DNA of 64,000 nucleotides from Planctomycetota bacterium (GCA_965223845.1 CBDCXR010000004.1:7616001-7680000), one strand, 5' to 3'. Counted from the first letter of the stretch, positions 48,311-59,526 are shown. A program made the numbers and translations. Notes: a model not told the origin generated them from the letters alone.

Positions 48311-48850
48311 GTGGTCTGCTTTCTCGCGATCGGCCTGAGCGGGATCGACGCCGTCGGAGTAGCGGTGCTCACGTCGGGCGTCGTGCGGCTTATCGGATTC
48401 GCCGATACGCCGCGCTATAAGACTCCGATGCGCGCGGTCGCACTCGTTTGCGGCCTATCGTTCCTCGAAGCCGTCCGGGTCCAGTGGGGTTTCCCGGGGA
48501 GCGCGTTTCATCCGATCTCTTTGGCGGTCGCTGCCGCCGAGATCGCAGCCGTCTTCGTGTTCATCCGCTGCATGAGGCTCCTCTCGACATGGCACGGCCT
48601 CGGCGAAGTCGCGCGAAGCTGGAGATGGACCGAGAGGCTGTGGCTCTGGATCTATCTGGTCCCGGGCGGAGTCTTCGGCCTCTTCTCGTTGAGGGAAATC
48701 GTCGCGAGCGACCAGGTTGAAGTTCCCGCGTTTTCGTTCGAGATCAGAATGCTGGTCATGGTCGCGCTGGTTCCGCTCGCGCTCACCCCGGCCATTTATC
48801 TCTTCGTATCCCGGTCGCTGATGGAGGAAGCGGCGCGAGATCGACGCTGA
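48311..48850 (+). CDS. Multi-pass membrane protein; N-terminus possibly frameshifted (from GTG 48195)
   Basis: About five hydrophobic segments. The upstream frame 48195-48310 ends '...LSRIFWGG' and joins it by a one-base shift. Confidence 0.6.
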   Translation: MVCFLAIGLSGIDAVGVAVLTSGVVRLIGFADTPRYKTPMRAVALVCGLSFLEAVRVQWGFPGSAFHPISLAVAAAEIAAVFVFIRCMRLLSTWHGLGEVARSWRWTERLWLWIYLVPGGVFGLFSLREIVASDQVEVPAFSFEIRMLVMVALVPLALTPAIYLFVSRSLMEEAARDRR

Positions 48851-48892: not shown

Positions 48893-51301
48893 CTATTCCC
48901 CTCGCAGCCGCCCGTTCCCTGGCTGCGCCGGGATCCTCACGCGGACCACTCCATCGCCCTCGGGTCGAATCGTGATCCGCTCGTGGCCCTTCGGGATCAG
49001 TACGTCGAGCAGGATCTCTTCTTCGCGCACTCCACTGAGCTCGAACGCTCCGTTCGCGTCCGACCGGTAGGTCGCACTCTTCGCGTTCGATCGAGACCCG
49101 TCGGAGACTCTGACGAGCGCGTTCGAGAGCGGCTCTCCGTGATCAGTGACAAGTTCGACCCGAACCGCGCGGAGGCCCTTCGTGGGAAAGGCGCGGATCA
49201 CGAGATCATCCGCCGGCAACGAAATCTCGAGGAGTCCACCTTCGAGCCGCGTCGACTCGAACGTCATACGAGCGGGGGTCGAGACTCTCTTTCGCCCCGA
49301 GACACGGAGGGTGACAACGTCCGCTCCGGTTCGAGCGGAGAATCGCCCGAACCGATCGGTCCAAATGTGAGACGTCTCGTCGTCGCTGATGAGTAAGAGC
49401 TCGATCTGCGGAATCGGTTCGTCACTTCCGTCGAGAACAATTCCCGCGGCGATCCTGGCCGGTGAGAGCTCGACGGTCGTTTCCGTAGCACCGTCGTGAG
49501 CCACAGTATCGAACGGGAGAAACTCGGGAGGTGCGCGCACGCGAAGGCCGCGTCTCCCGGGCGGAAGGAATCGAAAGTGTGCGCTCCCACTCGGGTCGGT
49601 GCGACTTCGGATCCTATCGCCCGGCTCGGTCGTCAGCTCGACGCTGGCCCCGAGGATCGGATCACCGTTCGACTTCGTGACGAGAACACGGAACGAACGT
49701 TCAAATTCGGGCTCGAGTACGAGGCCGTGAACATCTGAATCCATGACGACGATCGAGCGTCGGAGCGTCGGAGCGCCGTCTAACTGAAGGAAAGCCTCGT
49801 AGCGTCCGGGCGATACGAACGGGAAGCGAAACTGGCCTCGAGAATCGATGCGACAAGTCTCGATACCGCTGTGCGCGTTCGCTGAGCGCGACGGCCGTGC
49901 ACCGCTGTTCGATCGAGAGTCTCCGCCATTCGCACGACCCCTGAGAGTGAGCATTCGCCCTTCGAGAGGCCGTCCATCTCGATCGTGGGCCGATCCGCTC
50001 ACGACGAAGCCTCGAGGCAAAACAACGGTGGGTAGAGAGACGCGGTCGACGCCTTCCGGGGGAGGGTCGAACGTCACGACGGCTAGTCCCGAATCCTTCG
50101 CCGCGATCGAGATCGTGTAGGACGCATCGCGACGAAGATCGCGAATCTGGAACCTGCCGTCTTCGTCCGTGAGGGTGCTTCCGTAGGCGATCTTATCGAT
50201 TTCCGGTGTCCATCGTCTGCCGATCGCGGAGACGTTGGCTCCGCGTGCCGGCTCGCCGCCCGAGAGTTCGACATCGCCGACGACGACGAACGCGGGCGCG
50301 AGCTCGAAGTCGATTTCGTCGCGGTCTCCGACCAGAGCCTCGGATCGACCGAACCCAGAAGCGACGACGTGCAGCTCCCGCACGCCGTCGCCCGTCCAAC
50401 CGAGGTAGTGAAAACGACCGGACGCGTCGGTGCGAACGGCGCGAGCCAGCGTCCACCCGGCACCGACGCTCGCGCCCGCGATCGGAACTCCCGTTTCGGC
50501 GCACGTAACTCTACCGCGGATCGACTCGCCGGACGCGAGTACGACTGTGAGCCGGGTCTCGCCCGGTTTCTCGAGGGCGTTTTCTATATAGGGAGGGCCG
50601 GCCAGCGTCTCGTGCTCCGCGGCGAGGATGAACGGCCCGGTGGCGAGTGCGCCGAATACGAACGCGCCCTGCTCGTTCGTCGTCCCAACCCGAAAGTCAA
50701 AGGGTGTCGCGAGCTCGTTCGTCCGCCAGAAGCGAAGCGCCACACCCGGAACGGCGCGCCCGCCTTCGTCCTTCGCGACCACTCGGAGCGAGGCAGTGCG
50801 CTCGAGGATCAAGGTGGTTTCGGATTCGGCCGTGCAGCCGGAGGCGGTCGCCGAGACGTATCCGGCATGATTCGCCCGGAGATCGTAGGACTCGCGAGCA
50901 TCGACCTCAAACGCGAACTCGCCGCGGGCGCCGGAGCGTGTCGTGGCGATGTCGCTGCGTCGGCGGAGATCGGTGCCGAGGGTAGGAACTCGCGGAGCGT
51001 CGTTGCGACTCAGCACGACGGTAGCGTCGACGGCAGGCGCTCCGGATTCCTCGAGAACGAGACCGGAGAGCTCGGATCGATAGGGTGGAGTGGACTCGGA
51101 TTCTTCGCGGAGCGCGATCCGTCGCGCCGCCGCGAGGCGAGTCACGTTAGAGTCGGACGGAACCGCGCGATCGCGTAAGCTCCGTCGATCCGTCGCCGCC
51201 GACGACGGACTCGAACCCGTCGATCGCAATGCGAGGGCGAGGAAAACGGCCAGCAGAGTCAGGGCGACGATCGCACTCTGCACGCTAGATCGAATTCTCA
51301 T
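48893..51301 (-). CDS. Membrane-anchored protein with multiple carboxypeptidase-regulatory/CnaB-like (Ig-like) repeats
   Basis: N-terminal TM and repeated 'G.V.D..G.P..GA.V...T(D/N)..G.F.F..L..G.Y' units. The start overlaps the upstream stop (ATGA at 51298-51301). Confidence 0.85.
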   Translation of the reverse strand: MRIRSSVQSAIVALTLLAVFLALALRSTGSSPSSAATDRRSLRDRAVPSDSNVTRLAAARRIALREESESTPPYRSELSGLVLEESGAPAVDATVVLSRNDAPRVPTLGTDLRRRSDIATTRSGARGEFAFEVDARESYDLRANHAGYVSATASGCTAESETTLILERTASLRVVAKDEGGRAVPGVALRFWRTNELATPFDFRVGTTNEQGAFVFGALATGPFILAAEHETLAGPPYIENALEKPGETRLTVVLASGESIRGRVTCAETGVPIAGASVGAGWTLARAVRTDASGRFHYLGWTGDGVRELHVVASGFGRSEALVGDRDEIDFELAPAFVVVGDVELSGGEPARGANVSAIGRRWTPEIDKIAYGSTLTDEDGRFQIRDLRRDASYTISIAAKDSGLAVVTFDPPPEGVDRVSLPTVVLPRGFVVSGSAHDRDGRPLEGRMLTLRGRANGGDSRSNSGARPSRSANAHSGIETCRIDSRGQFRFPFVSPGRYEAFLQLDGAPTLRRSIVVMDSDVHGLVLEPEFERSFRVLVTKSNGDPILGASVELTTEPGDRIRSRTDPSGSAHFRFLPPGRRGLRVRAPPEFLPFDTVAHDGATETTVELSPARIAAGIVLDGSDEPIPQIELLLISDDETSHIWTDRFGRFSARTGADVVTLRVSGRKRVSTPARMTFESTRLEGGLLEISLPADDLVIRAFPTKGLRAVRVELVTDHGEPLSNALVRVSDGSRSNAKSATYRSDANGAFELSGVREEEILLDVLIPKGHERITIRPEGDGVVRVRIPAQPGNGRLRGE

Positions 51302-51684
51302 GCATCACGACCAAGCGCTTCGACGATCGAGTCGATGCTGCAGTACGCGGTTTCACCAACGAGGATCACTGGAGCCATCGCGTGGGATTGAAACCCGATG
51401 CTCTCTTCCAACTGGAAGAGTCTCCGGACGACGGAGGGCTCAGTGACATCGAGCCATACCACTTCCTCCGGCGAGTACCCGTGCCGCGCGAGGAGGAGAT
51501 CGAGGAACTCGGTCTTGATCAATTCGCAATCGGGGCAATGCGGATCAAAAAAGAAGAGAATTTCGACGTCTCGTCCATCTTCTTCGGTGGCTCCGGTGGG
51601 TCGCGACTGATCTTGGCAACCCGACAAGCAGCTGGCCACGAGCAGCGCGCCGACGACGGAGTAGCGTTCGCGAGTCGCCATCAT
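51298..51684 (-). CDS. Thioredoxin/glutaredoxin-like lipoprotein (CPDC)
   Basis: Lipobox LSGC, ILFFFDPHCPDC and cis-Pro-type 'MAPVILVG'. The start is coupled to the upstream stop (TAATG). Confidence 0.8.
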   Translation of the reverse strand: MMATRERYSVVGALLVASCLSGCQDQSRPTGATEEDGRDVEILFFFDPHCPDCELIKTEFLDLLLARHGYSPEEVVWLDVTEPSVVRRLFQLEESIGFQSHAMAPVILVGETAYCSIDSIVEALGRDA

Positions 51685-52454
51685 TACAAGGTCCGAACGA
51701 AGAGGAGCGCCGTGGCTTTTTCTGACTGTGCGGACTGAGGACCGCGCGAATGTCGAAACTCGAGCCGCAATTGTTCGTCGGACCACGATTCCTCAGGAAG
51801 CTCGAAGCTAAGGGTGACCCGCGCTTGTCGAGCGAATCCGTTCGGACGCCAGCCACGCGGAGTCCATTCGCCGATGGCATCGACGCGAAGCCGACTCGAC
51901 CGCGGCACGATCGAGGTCGACCAGAGCTCCGATCGATCGACGTCTTGCGCGGAGACGAACTCGGTCACGGTGAACGTCTTCCGAATCGTGTTCTCTCCGT
52001 CCGCTTCGTGCTCGGCGATCGACCAGATCGCAGGCGCGAGGCGAACTGAATATTCCGAGACGAAGAATGCGCGAGTTTTCAAGACCAACGGGGGCTCGAG
52101 ATCGTCGGCGAACCGCACCGCGACGGTGGCTTCTCTCGAGCCCGTAACCAATCGCGCATCCAAGGACACGCGAATTCGGCTCGTCCCGCCGGGGCGGAGT
52201 ATGCGAGGTTCGACTTCCGCCGAAAGACAGGTGCACGACTGTCGAACTTCATCGATCTCCAGAACTCTGGAGCCACGATTCTCAATCTCGAAGACGTGGT
52301 CCAGTCCTTCGCCGTTCCGCTCTACGGCCCCAAAATCGTGGAGCGTTCCGCCCACGACGAAGAGGTCGTCTTCACTCGTGCCGGCATTCGGGTCGCACCC
52401 CGCAGCGACGGCTGCGGCCACCGCGACGCAGCAGATTCGTGTCAACGCTTCCAT
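51684..52454 (-). CDS. DUF1573-domain (Ig-like) lipoprotein
   Basis: Lipobox AAGC and the DUF1573 signature HDFGAV...HVFEIENRG...LEI.EV..SCTCL......L.PG. Confidence 0.85.
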   Translation of the reverse strand: MEALTRICCVAVAAAVAAGCDPNAGTSEDDLFVVGGTLHDFGAVERNGEGLDHVFEIENRGSRVLEIDEVRQSCTCLSAEVEPRILRPGGTSRIRVSLDARLVTGSREATVAVRFADDLEPPLVLKTRAFFVSEYSVRLAPAIWSIAEHEADGENTIRKTFTVTEFVSAQDVDRSELWSTSIVPRSSRLRVDAIGEWTPRGWRPNGFARQARVTLSFELPEESWSDEQLRLEFRHSRGPQSAQSEKATALLFVRTL

Positions 52455-54010
52455 CGCGAACGAACTCCCAGAATGACGGCCAGTACCGCGCTGAGGCCAG
52501 CGATCGCCAACGAGACCGCTCTCACCCGCCGCCGTGAGCGATCGCTGGTGAGGATTCGATCGATCAGCACTTCATCCAAAACGATGGCGTGACCGGTCCA
52601 CACCTTTTCGATGTTCTCAGCGGTCGTCCGATACGGAAACTTCGGTGCGTCGAAGACGCGGAAGCTGTCGTCGTTCGCGTCGTAGTCGTCGATGACGACG
52701 AAGTGACCGTTCTCGAACTGTTCACCGCCCGGCATGCGGACGGTTCGAATCGCGTGAACGATCGCTGGTTTGCTGCCTGGCCGCTTCAGTGATTCCAGGT
52801 CACCGCCGTAGGCGAGCGCCCGCGCGTTCGTCGCCTCGATGGTGGATTGGATCTGGGCGAGAGTGCTCTCAGGTTCGCCCCGCTCGATTCCCAGTGAGCT
52901 CGTCAGGGGGGCGAGTGGCTGCGGACGACCGAGCAGAGCTAGCGCCAGGTAGACGCTGTTCGCCGAGCAACCCGTTGGGATCGCAGTGGTTTTGTTCGAG
53001 TGGGAGGCCGGGCCAACCACGTGAACGGCAGCGAGAAGCGCGTCGAGATCACGCTCGGCGATGAACTCACTCTTTCCGAGCTCACCGGCCGAGTCGACCA
53101 CATAACCCGATCCCTCGGCCGAGTCGTAGACTTTCGTTCCCGGAGCGAGCTCGGCGAGGTAATCCTCCCGGAGCGCTGCGGCGTCGAACCGGATGGACTC
53201 GGGATCGATCTTTAGGAACACCTCTTCGCCGGGCCGCAGCAGGCAGTGGTATACGGTCCACTCGACTGGAGTCGAGCGGTTCCCGATCGCTTCGGATGCC
53301 GTGACTTCGATTTTGCAGAATAGCGCGAGATCCTCTAGCCCGGAGGGCAGTGGGATGGGGGGGCCAAGATCGGGATTTCGGATTTCGACCGGGAGCTTGG
53401 ATACATCCGTGTAGAGGCGGTATTCGACGAATGGCTGTCGCCGGGATCGGTCCATGACGAACGCCACCGCCGAGCGCGCCTTGTCGTCTCGGACGCAGAC
53501 GACGATCTGGTTACCGTCCTCGGAGATCGCCTGCGCCCAGGGGGCGACCAGTTTGACGTGACGAGCGAGCGCCCGGTCGTTGATACAAAAAAACTGCGCG
53601 GTACTGGGATGGAGAACGGCTCCGAACTCCGCTGGCGACGTCATCGTTTCGATGGCTTGCCCTTTCAGCGAGTTCGCTTCGCGGTTGTAGACTCGACCCC
53701 GGCCGGCCAAGGCATCCCAGCCGTACTCCGCGAACTGAGTCTTCCGCCCCGCGACGAACATCTCGAAGCTGAGATACTGCGCGAACCCCGGCTGATAGCG
53801 AGCAGCCCAGGATCCTCGATAGACTTCGGCCGGATGCTCCGTCAGCTTCTGTCGACTCTCGTACGTTGCGGCGATCGCAGACGGGGTGTTCTGCTCGGCC
53901 CACTCGACAAACCAGCGTTCGAGCTCCGGATCTCCCGTCGTTCCTCCCACCGTCGTCTTCGTCGCGAAGCTCGCGAAGACGACGCAGAGACAAAGGCACC
54001 GTAGAGACAT
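52442..54010 (-). CDS. Exported, C-terminally membrane-anchored peptidase C39-like protein (no ABC domains)
   Basis: Signal peptide, ~330-aa unknown N-domain, then GCSANSVYLAL (Cys), GHFVVID (His), VFDAP (Asp), KVWTGHAIVL and a C-terminal TM with a basic tail. Confidence 0.82.
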   Translation of the reverse strand: MSLRCLCLCVVFASFATKTTVGGTTGDPELERWFVEWAEQNTPSAIAATYESRQKLTEHPAEVYRGSWAARYQPGFAQYLSFEMFVAGRKTQFAEYGWDALAGRGRVYNREANSLKGQAIETMTSPAEFGAVLHPSTAQFFCINDRALARHVKLVAPWAQAISEDGNQIVVCVRDDKARSAVAFVMDRSRRQPFVEYRLYTDVSKLPVEIRNPDLGPPIPLPSGLEDLALFCKIEVTASEAIGNRSTPVEWTVYHCLLRPGEEVFLKIDPESIRFDAAALREDYLAELAPGTKVYDSAEGSGYVVDSAGELGKSEFIAERDLDALLAAVHVVGPASHSNKTTAIPTGCSANSVYLALALLGRPQPLAPLTSSLGIERGEPESTLAQIQSTIEATNARALAYGGDLESLKRPGSKPAIVHAIRTVRMPGGEQFENGHFVVIDDYDANDDSFRVFDAPKFPYRTTAENIEKVWTGHAIVLDEVLIDRILTSDRSRRRVRAVSLAIAGLSAVLAVILGVRSRWKR

Positions 54011-54122
54011 CGCTAACCCTTTCGTTGTGGGGCGAACTTTGCAAACGAGCGCTCGCGGTCGCGTCCAGTCGGACTCCGGCGCGGACTCCCAAGAGCAATG
54101 CGCGATTTCGGCGCGCCGGAGC

Positions 54123-54178
54123 GAAGAGAGTCGGGCGAACGCCGGTCGGCCGGCGACAGGCAGCTCGCTCGACTCTTC
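54123..54178 (-). other. Stem-loop between the precursor gene and the C39 gene
   Basis: AGAGTCGGGCGA(54127-38)/TCGCTCGACTCT(54165-76) with inner CGCCGG/CCGGCG. No U-tract. Confidence 0.5.
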
Positions 54179-54201
54179 CGGGCGATTCGGCCGACTCGTC
54201 G

Positions 54202-54597
54202 TCAGCGGCAGCTCGGTACCGACGTGCTGCACGACGGTCCGTACCAGACGCCGTTCTGGCAAGTCGTCGCTCCGCTCGGGCAATTGCCGATGCGAAGTTT
54301 TCCGCAGCCGTTCTGGTATCCGTCGTCGCAGGTAGTCCCCTGGTTCACGACACACGTATCCCAAGTGTTGTTGGGATCGCAGTACGAGCAGAAGCCGTTC
54401 GCCGGAGGACAGTTCGGAAAGGTCCCGTTCGCAAAGTTGCAATCTGCCGATCCAACATTGCAAATGCGATCGTTCAAGACGTCCTGGCCGACGATCAGAT
54501 CCGCACGCTCCGACCCGAGTAGCGGTGACCCCGAGAACTCTATGAACGTCAGTCCGAACGCCAAAGCGACGGAGAGACAGAGAATCGAAGATTTCAT
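54202..54597 (-). CDS. Secreted cysteine-rich precursor peptide (signal peptide + double-glycine-like propeptide + 12-Cys core)
   Basis: AAGGAG RBS, hydrophobic N-terminus, 'LGSERADLIVGQ', and 12 Cys in the last 94 aa, which are rich in Asn/Gly/Thr. Confidence 0.85.
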   Translation of the reverse strand: MKSSILCLSVALAFGLTFIEFSGSPLLGSERADLIVGQDVLNDRICNVGSADCNFANGTFPNCPPANGFCSYCDPNNTWDTCVVNQGTTCDDGYQNGCGKLRIGNCPSGATTCQNGVWYGPSCSTSVPSCR

Positions 54598-55124
54598 CGT
54601 TTAAGGCTCCTTAATCGAATCGTAGGCATCGCTAAATGAATTGCGCAGTTCAGGTCATAGGCAGCACCCCGCAGCATCGCTTCTGAACGTCTTCCAATTG
54701 TGTAGGCGCTTCGATCCTTCGCCGGGCCCACTGTATGTAGAGCGCGAAACGCATCGAACATTCGCAGCCTTTTCGCTCGAACTCGACGGCAGCGATTCGG
54801 TTCGATTGATAAGTGGTCGAAACGACGTAAATGAAGCTCGGGAGTAAAAATTAGTCGGTTCGAAGTATGTAGGCGCTTCTATGTTGACTCGTTCGTGAGT
54901 GAGCCATACGCTTCGTGTCGCGGGACTAACGCGCGGGCGCGCTTGCATTCGCGTACTTCGGTCTGCCTCGAAATCATTTCGTCGTCGTCACGAGGTGATT
55001 TCCCTTCGCTGCGATCGACTTCGATTCCCGAGCATCGTGAATTGCGCGATGCTGAGTTGTGGCCAGGTTCGGTCGCTGTCGATGCTGGACCGTGCGCTTC
55101 GGTCTCATTCGAAAGGGGGGATTC

Positions 55125-55673
55125 ATGCGAGCGAATTCTACGGAGCTTCGTTTGTCGTTTGCGAAACTCGTCGAGCGGCTGGAGTGGCGGCTCAGAAAAC
55201 GAACTCGGTACCTCGCGCGCGGGCGACTGTTGAGACGATTCGAGGTCGACGATTTGGTTCAGGAAGCTCTGTTGAGTGCTTGGCGACGATTCTCCGCGGT
55301 GAAGGAGCACCGCCGGGTTTCGTGGATGTGGCTCCAGGCGGTTGCGACGCAATCGATCGTCTCGGTCGCGCGGCGGGATCAAGCGAAGAAGCGGCGCGGC
55401 GATGGAAGTCGGGAGCAGACGCTCGAATTCGAGTTCGTCGGGAAGGCGGAGGATCCGGTGCTCGTCGCCCAGCAGGAGGAGGCACGGGAGAGAGTGCGCT
55501 CGGCCGTGACGAAGCTGCCACCGAGCGAGGCGATCGTCGTTTGCGCCGTGTACCTCGAGCAACAACCCGTGTGTCAGGTGGCGCGACGCTTGGGCATTCC
55601 GGTCGGGACGGTGTACCGTCGACTGTTTCGAGCGCGGCAGAGACTGAAGGGCTACCTGCAGGAATCGGAATGA
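55125..55673 (+). CDS. ECF sigma-70 factor, divergent from the Cys-rich peptide operon
   Basis: EVDDLVQEALLSAW, WLQAVA...SVARR..AKKRR and region 4 VARRLGIPVGTVYRRLFRARQRL. RBS GAAAGGGGG. Confidence 0.88.
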   Translation: MRANSTELRLSFAKLVERLEWRLRKRTRYLARGRLLRRFEVDDLVQEALLSAWRRFSAVKEHRRVSWMWLQAVATQSIVSVARRDQAKKRRGDGSREQTLEFEFVGKAEDPVLVAQQEEARERVRSAVTKLPPSEAIVVCAVYLEQQPVCQVARRLGIPVGTVYRRLFRARQRLKGYLQESE

Positions 55674-55789: not shown

Positions 55790-57712
55790 GTGGAGAAGGC
55801 CGTGCTCTGTGACCGACCGATACGATCCTCCAGACTCTCGGCGTTCCGCTGGCTCGCCGTCTTCATCGCGTCGTCGGCGCTCGACGCTCACGAGCGCGAA
55901 ACGCTGCCTCAGCTCGCGGACGAAGTGCCGCCGCGCGACTTCGACGAGTTGTGGGCCGGATTTGATCCTCGCGCGGAGCCGCTCGAGGTCGAGACGCTGA
56001 ACGAATGGCAGGAGGACGGTGTCCAGCTGCGCGTCGTGCTATTCCGCATCGGGATCTTCAAGGATCGGGCTGCGCGACTCGCCGCGGTCTACGGATTCCC
56101 GCGGAGCACTGCCGGTCGCGGCGAGAAGGTCCCCGGTCTCGTCCAGATTCACGGTGGCGGTCAGTACGCCGATTACCGCGCCTGTCTTCTGAACGCCAAG
56201 CGCGGCTACGCGACCGTCTCCATCGCGTGGGCCGGCCGTATTTACGCGCCGGACTACCGCGTGACGCCGTCGGAGGTGAAGCTCTTTTGGGACGGCGCAA
56301 CTGACGATCCGGCCTACCGGCCGACTACGGACTGGGGCGCTCTCGACGGCTACCACGCTCCGAGCCGAAATCCGGGAAACGCGTTTCCGAGCGTCAGATC
56401 CGCAGCCTGGACCTTTGACGCGGTCGAGTCGCCGCGGAACAGCGGTTGGTTCCTTTGCGCGCTCGCCGCTCGTCGCGCGCTCACGTTCCTCGAGCGGCAG
56501 CCCGAGGTCGACGCCGAGCGGCTCGGAGTGTACGGCCATTCGATGGGCGGGAAGCTCACGGTCATGGTCGCGTCGGATGCGCGCGTCCGGGCGGCCGCGC
56601 CGTCGTGCGGAGGCATCAGCGATCGCTTCAACTCGAGTGCACTCTATCGCACGACGCTAGGAGATGACGTTCAGCTCAAGCGGGTGTCGTGTCCCATCCT
56701 TTTTCTCTCGCCGTCGAACGACTTCCACGGACGGATCGGCGACCTGCCCCGCGCGCTGCGAGAGATTTCGAGCTCCGACTGGCGAATCACTTCGTCGCCG
56801 CACCACAACCATCAAGACACGCCGCAGTACGAAGTCGCCACGCTGCTTTGGTTCGACGAGCACTTGAAAGGCTCGTTCTCGTTTCCCGAGACGCCGCGGG
56901 TGACCGTTACGCTCGGCGCAGCGACCGACGTACCGACGGTCGCCGTGCGGCCGGATCGATCGAGACGGATCCTCGCGGTTGATGTCTTCTATACACAGCA
57001 CGGGAAGGATCGCGAAGGGCCCGAGGACCGCGAGGCGACGATGCACCGCTTCTGGCGTTATGCCCATCCCGTCGAAGGGGATGGCGTTTGGACCGCCGGG
57101 CTCCGCCTCGCGAGTATCGATCGCCCCGTTTGGGTCTACGCGAACGTGCTCTACGCTCTCGATGCGCCCGTGACGGGAGCGGGATACTATTACGCCGAGT
57201 TTACGTCGGCGCGGCTCAATCTGTCGTCGCCTCTCGAGACCGTGAGCGTCGCCGAGCTTCGCGCCGCCGCAGTTCGCGCGACGCTCGAACCGTCGACGCG
57301 GATCGAGGATTTCGCGGGCAACTGGGCGAAGGAGTGGTTCACGTATCGACCGGATGAGTGGGCCATCACGACGCACAAGCTTCACGACGACGTGTGGAAG
57401 GCGCCCGCGGGTGCGGCGCTCGCACTGAGAGTTCGTGCCGCGGAGGCCAATCGATTTGTCATCGTCATCGACGGACACGCGGCGGAGGTCGAGCTCGCGG
57501 GCGGAGGCGAGTGGGAGGACGTCGTCGTTTCTCCGAGCGAGTTCCGCGATCACGCCGGCGAATCCCTGCGGGGATGGAGTGGAATCCGGCGCCTGACGCT
57601 CGCTCCGCGAGAGAGACTGAGGCCAAAGCGCGGCGGCGCGGGCGAGCCCCGCATCGTCGGCGGGAACTGGCGTGGTCCCGCACCCGAGTTTCGCGCACTC
57701 CGCTGGCGGTGA
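55790..57712 (+). CDS. Secreted alpha/beta hydrolase (acetylxylan-esterase/dienelactone-hydrolase-like) with C-terminal CBM-like domain
   Basis: PGLVQIHGGG, nucleophile elbow GHSMGG, SNDFHG and PHHNH motifs. Confidence 0.85.
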   Translation: MEKAVLCDRPIRSSRLSAFRWLAVFIASSALDAHERETLPQLADEVPPRDFDELWAGFDPRAEPLEVETLNEWQEDGVQLRVVLFRIGIFKDRAARLAAVYGFPRSTAGRGEKVPGLVQIHGGGQYADYRACLLNAKRGYATVSIAWAGRIYAPDYRVTPSEVKLFWDGATDDPAYRPTTDWGALDGYHAPSRNPGNAFPSVRSAAWTFDAVESPRNSGWFLCALAARRALTFLERQPEVDAERLGVYGHSMGGKLTVMVASDARVRAAAPSCGGISDRFNSSALYRTTLGDDVQLKRVSCPILFLSPSNDFHGRIGDLPRALREISSSDWRITSSPHHNHQDTPQYEVATLLWFDEHLKGSFSFPETPRVTVTLGAATDVPTVAVRPDRSRRILAVDVFYTQHGKDREGPEDREATMHRFWRYAHPVEGDGVWTAGLRLASIDRPVWVYANVLYALDAPVTGAGYYYAEFTSARLNLSSPLETVSVAELRAAAVRATLEPSTRIEDFAGNWAKEWFTYRPDEWAITTHKLHDDVWKAPAGAALALRVRAAEANRFVIVIDGHAAEVELAGGGEWEDVVVSPSEFRDHAGESLRGWSGIRRLTLAPRERLRPKRGGAGEPRIVGGNWRGPAPEFRALRWR

Positions 57713-58194: not shown

Positions 58195-58270
58195 TGGAGC
58201 CACCTTCCGGACTCGAACCGGAGACCTGTTCATTACGAATGAACTGCTCTACCAACTGAGCTAAGGTGGC
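58195..58270 (-). tRNA. tRNA-Thr(CGT)
   Basis: 76-nt cloverleaf GCCACCTTAGCTCAGTTGGTAGAGCA-GTTCA-TTCGTAA-TGAAC-AGGTCTCCGGTTCGAGTCCGGAAGGTGGCTCCA with an encoded CCA. Confidence 0.97.
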
Positions 58271-58485: not shown

Positions 58486-59526
58486 CTACTGCCGCGGCTG
58501 CGCTTCCTCGTACGCCTCTTTCACGTTGTCCGTCGAGACGTGCGTGTAGATCTGCGTCGTCGAGAGGTGCTTGTGGCCGAGGAGCTCCTGCACCGTGCGG
58601 AGGTTCGCCCCGCGGTTGAGGAGGTGCGTCGCGAAGCTGTGGCGGAGCGTGTGCGGCGACGTCTTCTCGCTGAGGCCCGTCACCTTGATGTACTTGTCGA
58701 TGATCTTTCGGATGCTTCGCGACGAGAGACGGTCGCCGAAGCGATTGAGGAAGAGAGCGTCGCCGTCCTTCTCATTGATATTCGGCACCTGCGCGCGGAG
58801 CTCGATGTAGCGCTTGAGCGCCTGGAGCGCGAAGGAGCCGAGAGGAACGATCCTCTCGCGATCTCCCTTTCCTCGCGCGCGGATCAGCTCCTGCGTGAGA
58901 TCGATATCGCTGACGTTGAGTCCCGTGAGCTCGCTCACGCGGAGGCCCGTCGAGTAGAGCGTCTCGAGGATCGCGCGATCGCGCGAAGCCTGAAAGCCGT
59001 TTCCGACCGGCGCGTTGAGGAGCTTCTCCACCTCGTCGGTGCTGAGGAAGTGGGGGACCTTTTTCTCGACCTTCGGCGTCGGGATGTCCGCGAGAGGATT
59101 CGTCGCGACGTAGCCCTTTCGGAGGAGACACTTGTAGAAGCTTCGCACCGTCGCCAGCTTTCGGACGACCGTCGTCTTTTGGTAGTTCTTGTCTTTCAGG
59201 TAGGCGAGGTACTCGCGAATTCGCAGCGAATCGAGCTGCGTCGGATCGCACTTCGCTCCGCCCTGCTCGAAGAAGCGAAGGAACTGGTGGAGATCCTTCT
59301 CGTACGCGCGGATCGTTTCAGGAGACATGTTCCGCTCGTAGCGCAGGTAGTGGATGAACGTCTGCTCGAAGTCGACGTCCCCGGTATTCGCCGGTGGTGC
59401 CTCTACCTGATCCGCGGGCTCCGCGATGACCTGCTCGTCCGGCGAGCCTTGGTCCTCGCCGGGCGCGGCGGACTCGCTCTTCAGCTCGACTGACTCGGGG
59501 ATTGCCGTTTCGAGTTTCTCTTCCAT
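58486..59526 (-). CDS. xerC: Tyrosine recombinase XerC/XerD type
   Basis: ERNMSPETIRAY..DL, RDRAILETLYSTGLRVSEL, GKGDRERIVP and SPHTLRHSFATHLL..GANLRTVQELLGH..LSTTQIYTHV motifs. Confidence 0.9.
   Translation of the reverse strand: MEEKLETAIPESVELKSESAAPGEDQGSPDEQVIAEPADQVEAPPANTGDVDFEQTFIHYLRYERNMSPETIRAYEKDLHQFLRFFEQGGAKCDPTQLDSLRIREYLAYLKDKNYQKTTVVRKLATVRSFYKCLLRKGYVATNPLADIPTPKVEKKVPHFLSTDEVEKLLNAPVGNGFQASRDRAILETLYSTGLRVSELTGLNVSDIDLTQELIRARGKGDRERIVPLGSFALQALKRYIELRAQVPNINEKDGDALFLNRFGDRLSSRSIRKIIDKYIKVTGLSEKTSPHTLRHSFATHLLNRGANLRTVQELLGHKHLSTTQIYTHVSTDNVKEAYEEAQPRQ

Follow-up and report, generated by a model that had tools for sequence, protein, structure and literature searches.

Gene content and organization of the locus

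A 64,000-nucleotide stretch of DNA from a planctomycete (Planctomycetota bacterium, GCA_965223845.1, CBDCXR010000004.1:7616001-7680000; called 'the window' in the following) carries on its minus strand a five-gene operon in which a gene for a Cys-rich precursor is followed by one for a peptidase of the C39 family, with no ATP-binding cassette (ABC) transporter. In the direction of transcription, the operon encodes a precursor of 131 amino acids (aa; 54202..54597), a 522-aa exported-type protein in which a LolA-like domain precedes the C39 peptidase domain (52442..54010), a 256-aa DUF1573 protein (51684..52454), a 128-aa protein with a CPDC (CxxC) motif (51298..51684) and an 802-aa protein with CarboxypepD_reg repeats (48893..51301). 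The last four genes overlap, as read directly from the sequence, by 13 bp (C39/DUF1573, ATG...TGA), by TAATG (DUF1573/CPDC) and by ATGA (CPDC/802-aa protein). A 204-aa extracytoplasmic function (ECF) sigma factor is encoded divergently on the plus strand (55059..55673), across a 461-nt spacer (54598..55058) that is AT-richer than its surroundings (GC content of 0.51-0.54 vs 0.62-0.67). The five same-strand genes, the three overlaps, the divergent sigma factor gene and the AT-richer spacer had all been described in a first-pass annotation of the window, and all of them were present.

The ATG of the precursor gene is preceded at a distance of 9 nt by AGGAG. The GC content at third codon positions (GC3) of the precursor gene is 0.72, similar to that of the neighbouring genes; an antisense open reading frame (ORF) at 54098-54604 shares these third positions, and GC3 alone cannot separate the two ORFs. 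The 191-nt spacer between the precursor and peptidase genes (54011..54201, minus strand) had been thought to hold a stem-loop, which was not significant when compared with shuffled sequences (z of -0.72; 47 of 200 shuffles folded equally well), and a terminator-like match located there was within the expectation from shuffling (3 such matches found, 6.2 expected). No sigma-70-like promoter was found in the divergent spacer (54598..55058). The sequence TCGAACCGA occurs twice in this spacer, at 54797-54805 and 54855-54863 (minus strand), 58 nt apart, and its count in the whole window was not above chance (3 found, 3.09 expected).

The operon lacks an ABC transporter, as the first-pass annotation had it, and no C39-ABC transporter was found in the genome as a whole (92% complete), in which PF03412 matched in two places, neither of them an ABC protein. 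The second match is a non-ABC protein of 293 aa with several N-terminal membrane helices (G000:C4:5342725-5343606; L104:7725-8606, minus strand), beside which no Cys-rich ORF was seen. A Peptidase_C39_2 protein was also observed, in a 685-aa frame at G000:C4:7440982-7441377.

Domain structure of the 522-aa protein

The 522-aa protein begins with a short hydrophobic signal-like stretch, which is followed by a LolA/LolB/DUF1329-like half-barrel domain (residues ~24-300; 53111..53941, minus strand), a C39 peptidase domain with Cys348, His436 and Asp454 (residues ~322-481; 52568..53047, minus strand) and a C-terminal hydrophobic helix with Arg-rich flanks (residues 498-516; 52463..52519, minus strand), predicted to be a membrane anchor. 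In the AlphaFold2 (AF2) model, the anchor is part of a long helix (residues 480-521). The fused homologues described below have two membrane helices, of which the first is the one aligned with the anchor. The LolA-like domain, which takes up the first ~300 residues and is a constant part of the system, had been missed in the first reading of this protein.

No relative of the protein was found by word-based search or in 60 related genomes, NCBIfam gave nothing, and in 400 genomes of the phylum full-length relatives were not found, the matches being to the C39 domain only and mostly in ABC transporters. An exhaustive phmmer search produced 31 family representatives, 11 of which aligned over their full length at E<1e-30. 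Peptidase_C39 was matched in 20 of the 31 (best E 8.6e-16), and in the 522-aa protein itself PF03412 matched residues 381-479 with 23.8 bits (cut-off 22). In an alignment of 19 sequences C348, H419, H436, L366 and G473 were invariant, and D454 (at least 90%), P456 and W471 were near-invariant.

The AF2 model, built with 31 sequences, had a pLDDT of 92.2 and a pTM of 0.84. Its residues 322-481 superimposed on the peptidase domain of ComA (5xe8) with a Z score of 15.0 and an rmsd of 2.5 Å over 128 residues, and on those of PCAT1 and LahT150 with Z scores of 14.9 (rmsd up to 2.9 Å) and 13.8, respectively. PCAT1 was also recovered with the family profile (E 6e-10), and in this match the three catalytic residues of the family (Cys, His and Asp) fall on TDCGAAC, AHFVVI and VADP of PCAT1. 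The catalytic triad proposed in the first-pass annotation was thereby located, from conservation and alignment, at Cys348, His436 and Asp454, which correspond to the catalytic residues of PCAT1. C39 peptidases feature an oxyanion-hole Gln a few residues before the catalytic Cys; no Gln before C348 was conserved in the 19-sequence alignment, and the Pfam and PDB sequence matches begin no earlier than the Cys itself. The fold, the profile matches and the catalytic residues make the 522-aa protein a member of C39. It is not a peptidase-containing ABC transporter (PCAT), since ABC domains were tested for and are absent.

For the LolA-like domain there was no sequence-family match in Pfam or NCBIfam. 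In the model, residues 24-299 matched 4z48 (Z of 14.9; 218 residues aligned, rmsd 3.7 Å), 3bk5 (14.5) and 9tp6 (14.3), and classical LolA and LolB with Z scores of 10-12. The model shows an open half-barrel with a lid over residues ~24-300, as in the LolA/LolB/DUF1329 superfamily, whose members bind lipoprotein acyl chains.

DUF1573 and its fusion to the peptidase

The 256-aa protein matched PF07610 with 54.6 bits (cut-off 26.1) and NF041425 ('OS_HP2 (seleno)protein', a DUF1573-like family) with 40.7 bits, below the cut-off of 100, and it carries a lipobox-like AAGC and the motif C74-T75-C76. DUF1573 is fused to the peptidase in 11 of the 31 family representatives, in which the chain runs on from C39 through a membrane helix and an Arg-rich loop to a second helix, which ends in G-C and leads into DUF1573. 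Residues 6-234 of the window's separate DUF1573 protein align with residues 599-831 of one such fusion, P0007 (32% identity, E 3e-31, BLASTP), and this alignment takes in the lipobox-like region and a long C-terminal extension; the two overlapping genes of the window therefore correspond to one protein elsewhere. With two helices between C39 and DUF1573 (none in the fusion of locus L052), both domains would be expected on the same side of the membrane, and the signal-like N-termini and the positively charged loop suggest that this is the outer side.

A C-x-C motif is present in the DUF1573 protein of the window and in the DUF1573 part of all 23 C39-DUF1573 proteins read from related loci (see below), in one of these as U-x-C. 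The U-x-C case is the fusion of locus L087, which has an in-frame TGA at the first position of the motif (NYE-U-G-C; L087:4819-4821, minus strand) and whose genome encodes SelA; a hairpin behind this TGA was no better than in shuffled sequences (z of -0.91). The free-standing DUF1573 protein of the relative L006 (at ~1600, plus strand) reads GT-U-G-C, and many DUF1573 matches in other planctomycetes have one in-frame TGA. Read in this way, the TGA at the first Cys of the motif probably encodes selenocysteine, as in OS_HP2-like proteins. Redox-active sites are where selenocysteine typically takes the place of Cys, and for this reason we infer that DUF1573 may be a disulfide catalyst or isomerase for the cargo.

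Recurrence of the cassette in other Planctomycetota

When 400 genomes of the phylum were searched with a profile, most of the C39 proteins found were of the ABC type; ABC domains were carried by 20 of the 26 that were scanned. Of the few stand-alone forms, three (in G150, G329 and G273) were C39-DUF1573 fusions without a LolA-like part, and two, in G126 and in the metagenome locus L048, were C39-rhodanese fusions with MauE behind them. For the window's own C39 family no relative was found in the genome contigs, and one distant metagenome locus, L048, was recovered. A profile of the three C39-DUF1573 fusions was then searched in 401 genomes of the class of G150, where single-frame matches to C39 and DUF1573 were found in at least 20 genomes. 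Altogether, 23 C39-DUF1573 loci were read (20 from the class search and the first three).

Gene order in these loci was constant: a small ORF, a 'middle' protein of 316-430 aa (548 aa in L103 and 266 aa in L096) and the C39-DUF1573 protein. The middle proteins belong to no Pfam family. Compared with the LolA-like domain of the window, an alignment of 25 of them gave a probability of 92.9% in hhalign (E 3.8e-7, 134 columns), a link that was unseen by BLAST and reached only E 0.0068 with a plain hidden Markov model. The same parts are found in three arrangements, namely a LolA-like protein followed by a C39-DUF1573 fusion, a LolA-like-C39 fusion followed by DUF1573 (as in the window), and a single chain. 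Within the 23 C39-DUF1573 proteins the active-site columns hold Cys in 21 (of the remaining two, one is truncated at a contig end and one is without it), His in 22 and Asp in 21.

An upstream small Cys-rich ORF on the same strand, with a signal-like N-terminus and 9-16 Cys after the leader motif (see below), was present in 16 of the 23 loci. Among the 20 new loci a filter for such ORFs picked it in 12, where 1.1-2.3 kb separate it from the C39 match downstream, and the filter also picked ORFs in L049, L050 (two copies), L051 and L052; the ORF of L087, the thirteenth among the new loci, is cut by the contig end. Three loci (L092, L093 and L095) end too early for an upstream precursor to be assessed. 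The filter used for Cys-rich ORFs (50-260 aa in length, with a signal-like N-terminus and a minimum of 6 Cys and 5% Cys) was passed off target four times in 343 kb of loci, by a MauE protein (L048), by implausible ORFs in L093 and L096, and by a third Cys-rich ORF in L050, which adjoins a second pair of DUF1573 and 'middle'-like genes. The precursor, the LolA-like domain, C39 and DUF1573 are thus the core of a recurrent cassette without an ABC transporter, of which the window holds a divergent member.

Several other genes were seen around the cassettes. Immediately downstream of the cassette, 16 of the 23 loci (L049, L085-L092, L094, L095, L097 and L099-L102) have a DUF1559 (SBP_bac_10) gene, most of the products having a prepilin-type N-terminal methylation motif; the window operon has no DUF1559. 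Possible thiol-redox partners are Redoxin/thioredoxin-like proteins right after the cassette in L084 and MauE in L098, L103, L051 and L048. A sister arrangement in L051 (8502-10006, minus strand) and L048 (910-2611, plus strand) consists of a 'middle'-like protein, a C39-membrane segment-rhodanese protein and MauE, and the 96-aa Cys-rich ORF upstream in L051 reads SVSGG|ATKDC. In L090, where the precursor is missing, a 477-aa protein with a CAP domain (cysteine-rich secretory protein family; L090:10826-12259, minus strand) is encoded upstream of the 'middle' gene.

Leaders of the precursors

Leaders from 18 related precursors were aligned on their glycines, with the anchor set by eye for several rows. 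The most frequent residues were R at position -14 (9/18), L at -12 (14/18), S at -11 (11/18), E at -8 (11/18), L, V or I at -4 (13/18), G at -2 (17/18) and G at -1 (16/18, with one S and one A), and 17 of the 18 combined G at -2 with G, A or S at -1. A hydrophobic signal-like segment precedes the motif, whose distance from the start of the protein is 26-57 residues, and the core after it has 70-128 residues with 6-16 Cys. The precursors are loosely alike, with pairwise BLAST E values mostly weaker than 1e-4 and a few down to 1e-52. Judged by their residues, the leaders of the related precursors are classical double-glycine leaders.

The precursor of the window consists of a signal-like N-terminus (residues 1 to ~23), a partial match to this motif and a 93-residue core, with 12 Cys that all follow residue 38. 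The candidate double-glycine-type motif (L27...I35-V36-G37-Q38; 54484-54519, minus strand) reads L27-G-S-E-R-A-D-L-I35-V-G37-Q38, at the site equivalent to the double-glycine motif of the relatives. Cleavage near G37/Q38, as suggested in the first-pass annotation, is consistent with this position; the canonical ending is not retained, the motif of the window ending in G-Q and not in G-G. The precursor alone passed the Cys-rich filter in the window, compared with 45 ORFs in the 7.93-Mb genome (0.57 per 100 kb). It had no Pfam match above threshold, no NCBIfam match, no significant PDB sequence match and no usable Atlas match. A complex prediction of precursor residues 22-131 with peptidase residues 25-480 scored 0.00 and, with the partner's own fold uncertain, is uninformative either way. 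Outside the window, an 83-aa ORF made up almost entirely of Cys codons (52 Cys; G000:C4:6415934-6416185, plus strand) was also observed, and is probably a trinucleotide repeat and not a gene.

The CxxC protein, the repeat protein and the sigma factor

The 128-aa protein has a lipobox, LSGC (C23), and the motif C50-P-D-C53, as expected for the CPDC thioredoxin-like lipoprotein of the first-pass annotation. Its assignment to the thioredoxins was less clear: Thioredoxin_2 matched over 22 residues around CPDC with 16.1 bits, below the cut-off of 27. A single-sequence AF2 model with a pLDDT of 45 showed the order beta-CPDC-alpha-beta-alpha-beta-beta-alpha, and in a Foldseek search with this low-confidence model the top rows were all thioredoxins and glutaredoxins, none better than E 0.06, and the Atlas matches are leads only. 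The protein is an orphan, with no homologue found in the 60 related genomes or by word-based searches.

The 802-aa protein, which had been described as an Ig-like repeat protein, instead consists of an N-terminal hydrophobic anchor and seven CarboxypepD_reg repeats (PF13620, E 2e-52). The sigma factor matched TIGR02937 with 79.9 bits (cut-off 42.9) and Sigma70_r4_2 at 5.2e-11, and Sigma70_r2 with 20.6 bits, below the cut-off of 24; there is no anti-sigma gene next to its gene.

All of these genes had been placed in one system in the first-pass annotation. The small Cys-rich ORF, C39 and DUF1573 do recur together, in the 16 loci given above; the CxxC protein, the 802-aa protein and a neighbouring 179-aa ORF (see below) were not found by tblastn in 26 related loci, and the sigma factor was matched in one of them, ~7 kb from the cassette. 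The CxxC lipoprotein, the 802-aa protein and the ECF sigma factor look like lineage-specific additions and not like defining parts.

Neighbouring genes

A 179-aa multi-helix membrane ORF of no family (48311-48850, plus strand) converges on the end of the operon, leaving a gap of 42 nt, and might be an immunity-type partner. On the other side, a tRNA-Thr(CGT) gene (58195-58270, minus strand) adjoins a gene for a tyrosine recombinase (58486-59526, minus strand; Phage_integrase, E 2.7e-50); together with the orphan genes of the operon and its slightly low GC content, these may mark an acquired island. A gene for an exported alpha/beta-hydrolase is located near the cassette in three otherwise distant loci (window, 55790-57712, plus strand; L050:11667-12680; L084:10761-11897), which may be a coincidence; the tblastn search of the 26 loci matched the hydrolase in one locus.

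Evaluation of alternative explanations

The first-pass annotation had envisaged a Sec-dependent, ABC-free route in which an extracytoplasmic C39 peptidase acts on the Cys-rich precursor, and recurrence in 16 of 23 loci supports such a route, with cleavage deduced from sequence. We consider it reasonably likely that the operon encodes a Sec-dependent, ABC-independent maturation system for a secreted disulfide-rich protein. A number of observations weigh against this. The motif of the window's precursor fits three of six key positions (L at -12, I at -4 and G at -2) and misfits the S at -11, the E at -8 and the G at -1, with Gln at -1, a position that is held by Gly, Ala or Ser in known C39 sites. 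The precursor is, as far as its sequence can be compared, an orphan, with no detectable relative in searches that included the 60 related genomes and word-based methods, and BLAST against the 19 other precursors, a tiny database, gave a best E of 0.01. An upstream precursor was lacking in 4 of the 20 loci that could be assessed (L088, L089, L090 and L099), and the loci read belong to distant relatives, the closest homologues (P0003-P0013) being outside the set. As for the enzymes, the PF03412 match of the 522-aa protein is marginal and covers profile positions 44-129 only, the protease of L087 has Leu for the catalytic His and two proteases have Ser for the Asp. The periplasmic location of the protease is deduced from features of its sequence, cleavage of the precursor by C39 is probable, and the evidence that the 128-aa protein is glutaredoxin- or thioredoxin-like, as it probably is, is weak.

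The C39-like protease could have another substrate. It might cut the DUF1573 protein with which it is paired, or a lipoprotein that the LolA-like domain holds, in a LapG-like release step; for the other class, the pilin-like DUF1559 protein would be a candidate. The Cys-rich protein would in that case inhibit or regulate, or be secreted for an unrelated purpose. The G-Q ending in the window and the four related loci without a precursor fit this explanation, as do the LolA-like folds, which carry lipoprotein acyl chains (according to the titles of the matched chains), the lipobox-like sequences in two of the operon products, and a gene with an apolipoprotein N-acyltransferase domain next to the cassette in L103. 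It is nevertheless rather unlikely in our estimate, as 17 of the 18 ORFs upstream in related loci have the textbook C39 motif, always equally far behind the signal peptide, which is hard to explain for non-substrates, and no lipobox is common to the precursors (first 80 residues, examined by eye). Improbable to a greater degree is a role in envelope signalling, as a module belonging to the divergent ECF sigma factor, in which an RseB/LolA-like sensor and the protease would act in the manner of RseB, RseA and DegS, with the Cys-rich protein as the signal or an anti-sigma-like partner. While the sigma factor gene is divergent with no adjoining anti-sigma gene, and RseB chains were among the Foldseek matches (E 1.7e-5), those matches were poor (TM score of 0.16-0.27, rmsd of 17-19 Å) compared with the DUF1329 and LolA matches, Pfam found no cytoplasmic anti-sigma domain in the operon products, and the sigma factor had its single match among the 26 related loci some distance from the cassette. 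The genes could, lastly, be unrelated neighbours, with a small ORF that is no gene or else encodes an ordinary secreted protein, and with a C39-like domain that is degenerate and non-catalytic. The want of close relatives of the precursor, C39 and CxxC proteins in the 60 related genomes and word-based searches, and a region that is possibly an acquired island (GC dip, tRNA-Thr and recombinase), would agree with this, but gene fusions, translational coupling, the conserved triad and the recurrent gene order speak against it, as do the ribosome-binding site and the GC3 of 0.72 of the small ORF; we regard it as highly improbable and largely refuted.

Proposed pathway

For the favoured reading, maturation of a secreted disulfide-rich protein after Sec-dependent export, the fusion, the gene order, the motif and the conserved active site are observed, and the biochemical steps that we infer from them are as follows. 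The N-terminal signal peptide would take the 131-aa precursor across the cytoplasmic membrane, as its sequence suggests. A membrane-tethered, periplasm-facing C39 protease (Cys348/His436/Asp454) would then remove a short double-glycine-type propeptide, as synteny, motif and active site indicate, cutting at or next to G37-Q38 in the window and after G-G in the relatives. The LolA-like and DUF1573 Ig-like domains, which always accompany the protease as separate genes or as fusion partners, probably hold or fold the substrate; the LolA-like module possibly holds the hydrophobic leader, and the C-x-C of DUF1573 is a candidate redox site for forming or shuffling 5-8 disulfides. More tentatively, the CxxC lipoprotein and the CarboxypepD_reg protein may be translationally coupled add-ons in the lineage of the window. 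The product would be a lineage-specific Cys-rich protein, and our guess is a bacteriocin-like or signalling exoprotein.

A wider version of this pathway is possible, and rather doubtful in our estimate: a dedicated planctomycete periplasmic machine for hypervariable disulfide-rich exoproteins, in which a double-glycine motif serves as a second 'address' after Sec, the LolA-like domain captures the precursor, the tethered C39 cuts it and the C-x-C or U-x-C of DUF1573 is the disulfide catalyst, with the bacteriocin-like or signalling product released, in most lineages, with the help of the adjacent DUF1559 pilin-like protein. If true, this would give DUF1573 a first function and double-glycine leaders a second, transporter-free use.

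Comparison with described systems

Textbooks place double-glycine leaders and C39 proteases with ABC exporters, which cut the leader while they pump the substrate. With these PCAT or ABC transporter maturation and secretion (AMS) proteins (ComA, PCAT1 and LahT) the window protease shares its fold and catalytic residues (Z scores of 13.8-15.0; profile E 6e-10), and the precursors of the related loci share the leader motif (L at -12, E at -8, a hydrophobic residue at -4, G at -2 and G at -1). Unlike them, neither the window protein nor the operon nor the genome's other C39 match has ABC_membrane or ABC_tran, the motif of the precursors is preceded by a Sec-type signal peptide, and the protease has a signal-like N-terminus of its own and LolA-like and DUF1573 partners. 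Given this N-terminus and the joining to LolA-like and DUF1573 domains, cleavage would be expected after export, not during it.

Among other systems, LapG acts in the release of LapA as a periplasmic cysteine protease, trimming an exported protein; its peptidase family is a different one, however, and its substrate a giant adhesin. MauE and MauD are linked to the making of the many-disulfide small subunit of methylamine dehydrogenase; MauE adjoins the C39-rhodanese proteins and is present in some of the C39-DUF1573 loci, whereas the window operon has no MauE gene. The closest described case is FapD, from the Fap amyloid system of Pseudomonas. This C39 protease stands alone, is said to act in the periplasm and to be needed for secretion, has an unclear target and belongs to a C39 class described as 'yet to be characterised' (PMC5557850). 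The available passages of that source mention no LolA-like or DUF1573 partner for FapD; in the related loci described here the candidate substrates carry a clear recognition motif, and Pfam found no Fap amyloid subunit (FapB/FapC) or FapF barrel among nine proteins of the region.

In a search of full texts, no publication was found on C39 with DUF1573, MauE, LolA or planctomycete double-glycine precursors, nor on DUF1573 with thioredoxin in Planctomycetes; in one study the passages on C39 concern toxin-type domains only (PMC3482391). By this search the cassette is undescribed. The pairing of C39 with double-glycine leaders is itself already known from ABC exporters, and what appears to be new here is that the motif and the peptidase seemingly work after ordinary Sec export, with LolA-like and DUF1573 partners of no known function in such a setting.

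Implications

If confirmed, the pathway would be a new route to secreted disulfide-rich proteins in a phylum with little-known secreted products, would supply candidate substrates for the uncharacterised periplasmic C39 class and would give DUF1573 a testable redox role. The divergent branch represented by the window would be useful for mapping the specificity of the enzyme because of its other fusion pattern and its unusual G-Q site, and the diverse Cys-rich proteins of these Planctomycetota would become candidates for antimicrobial or signalling functions.

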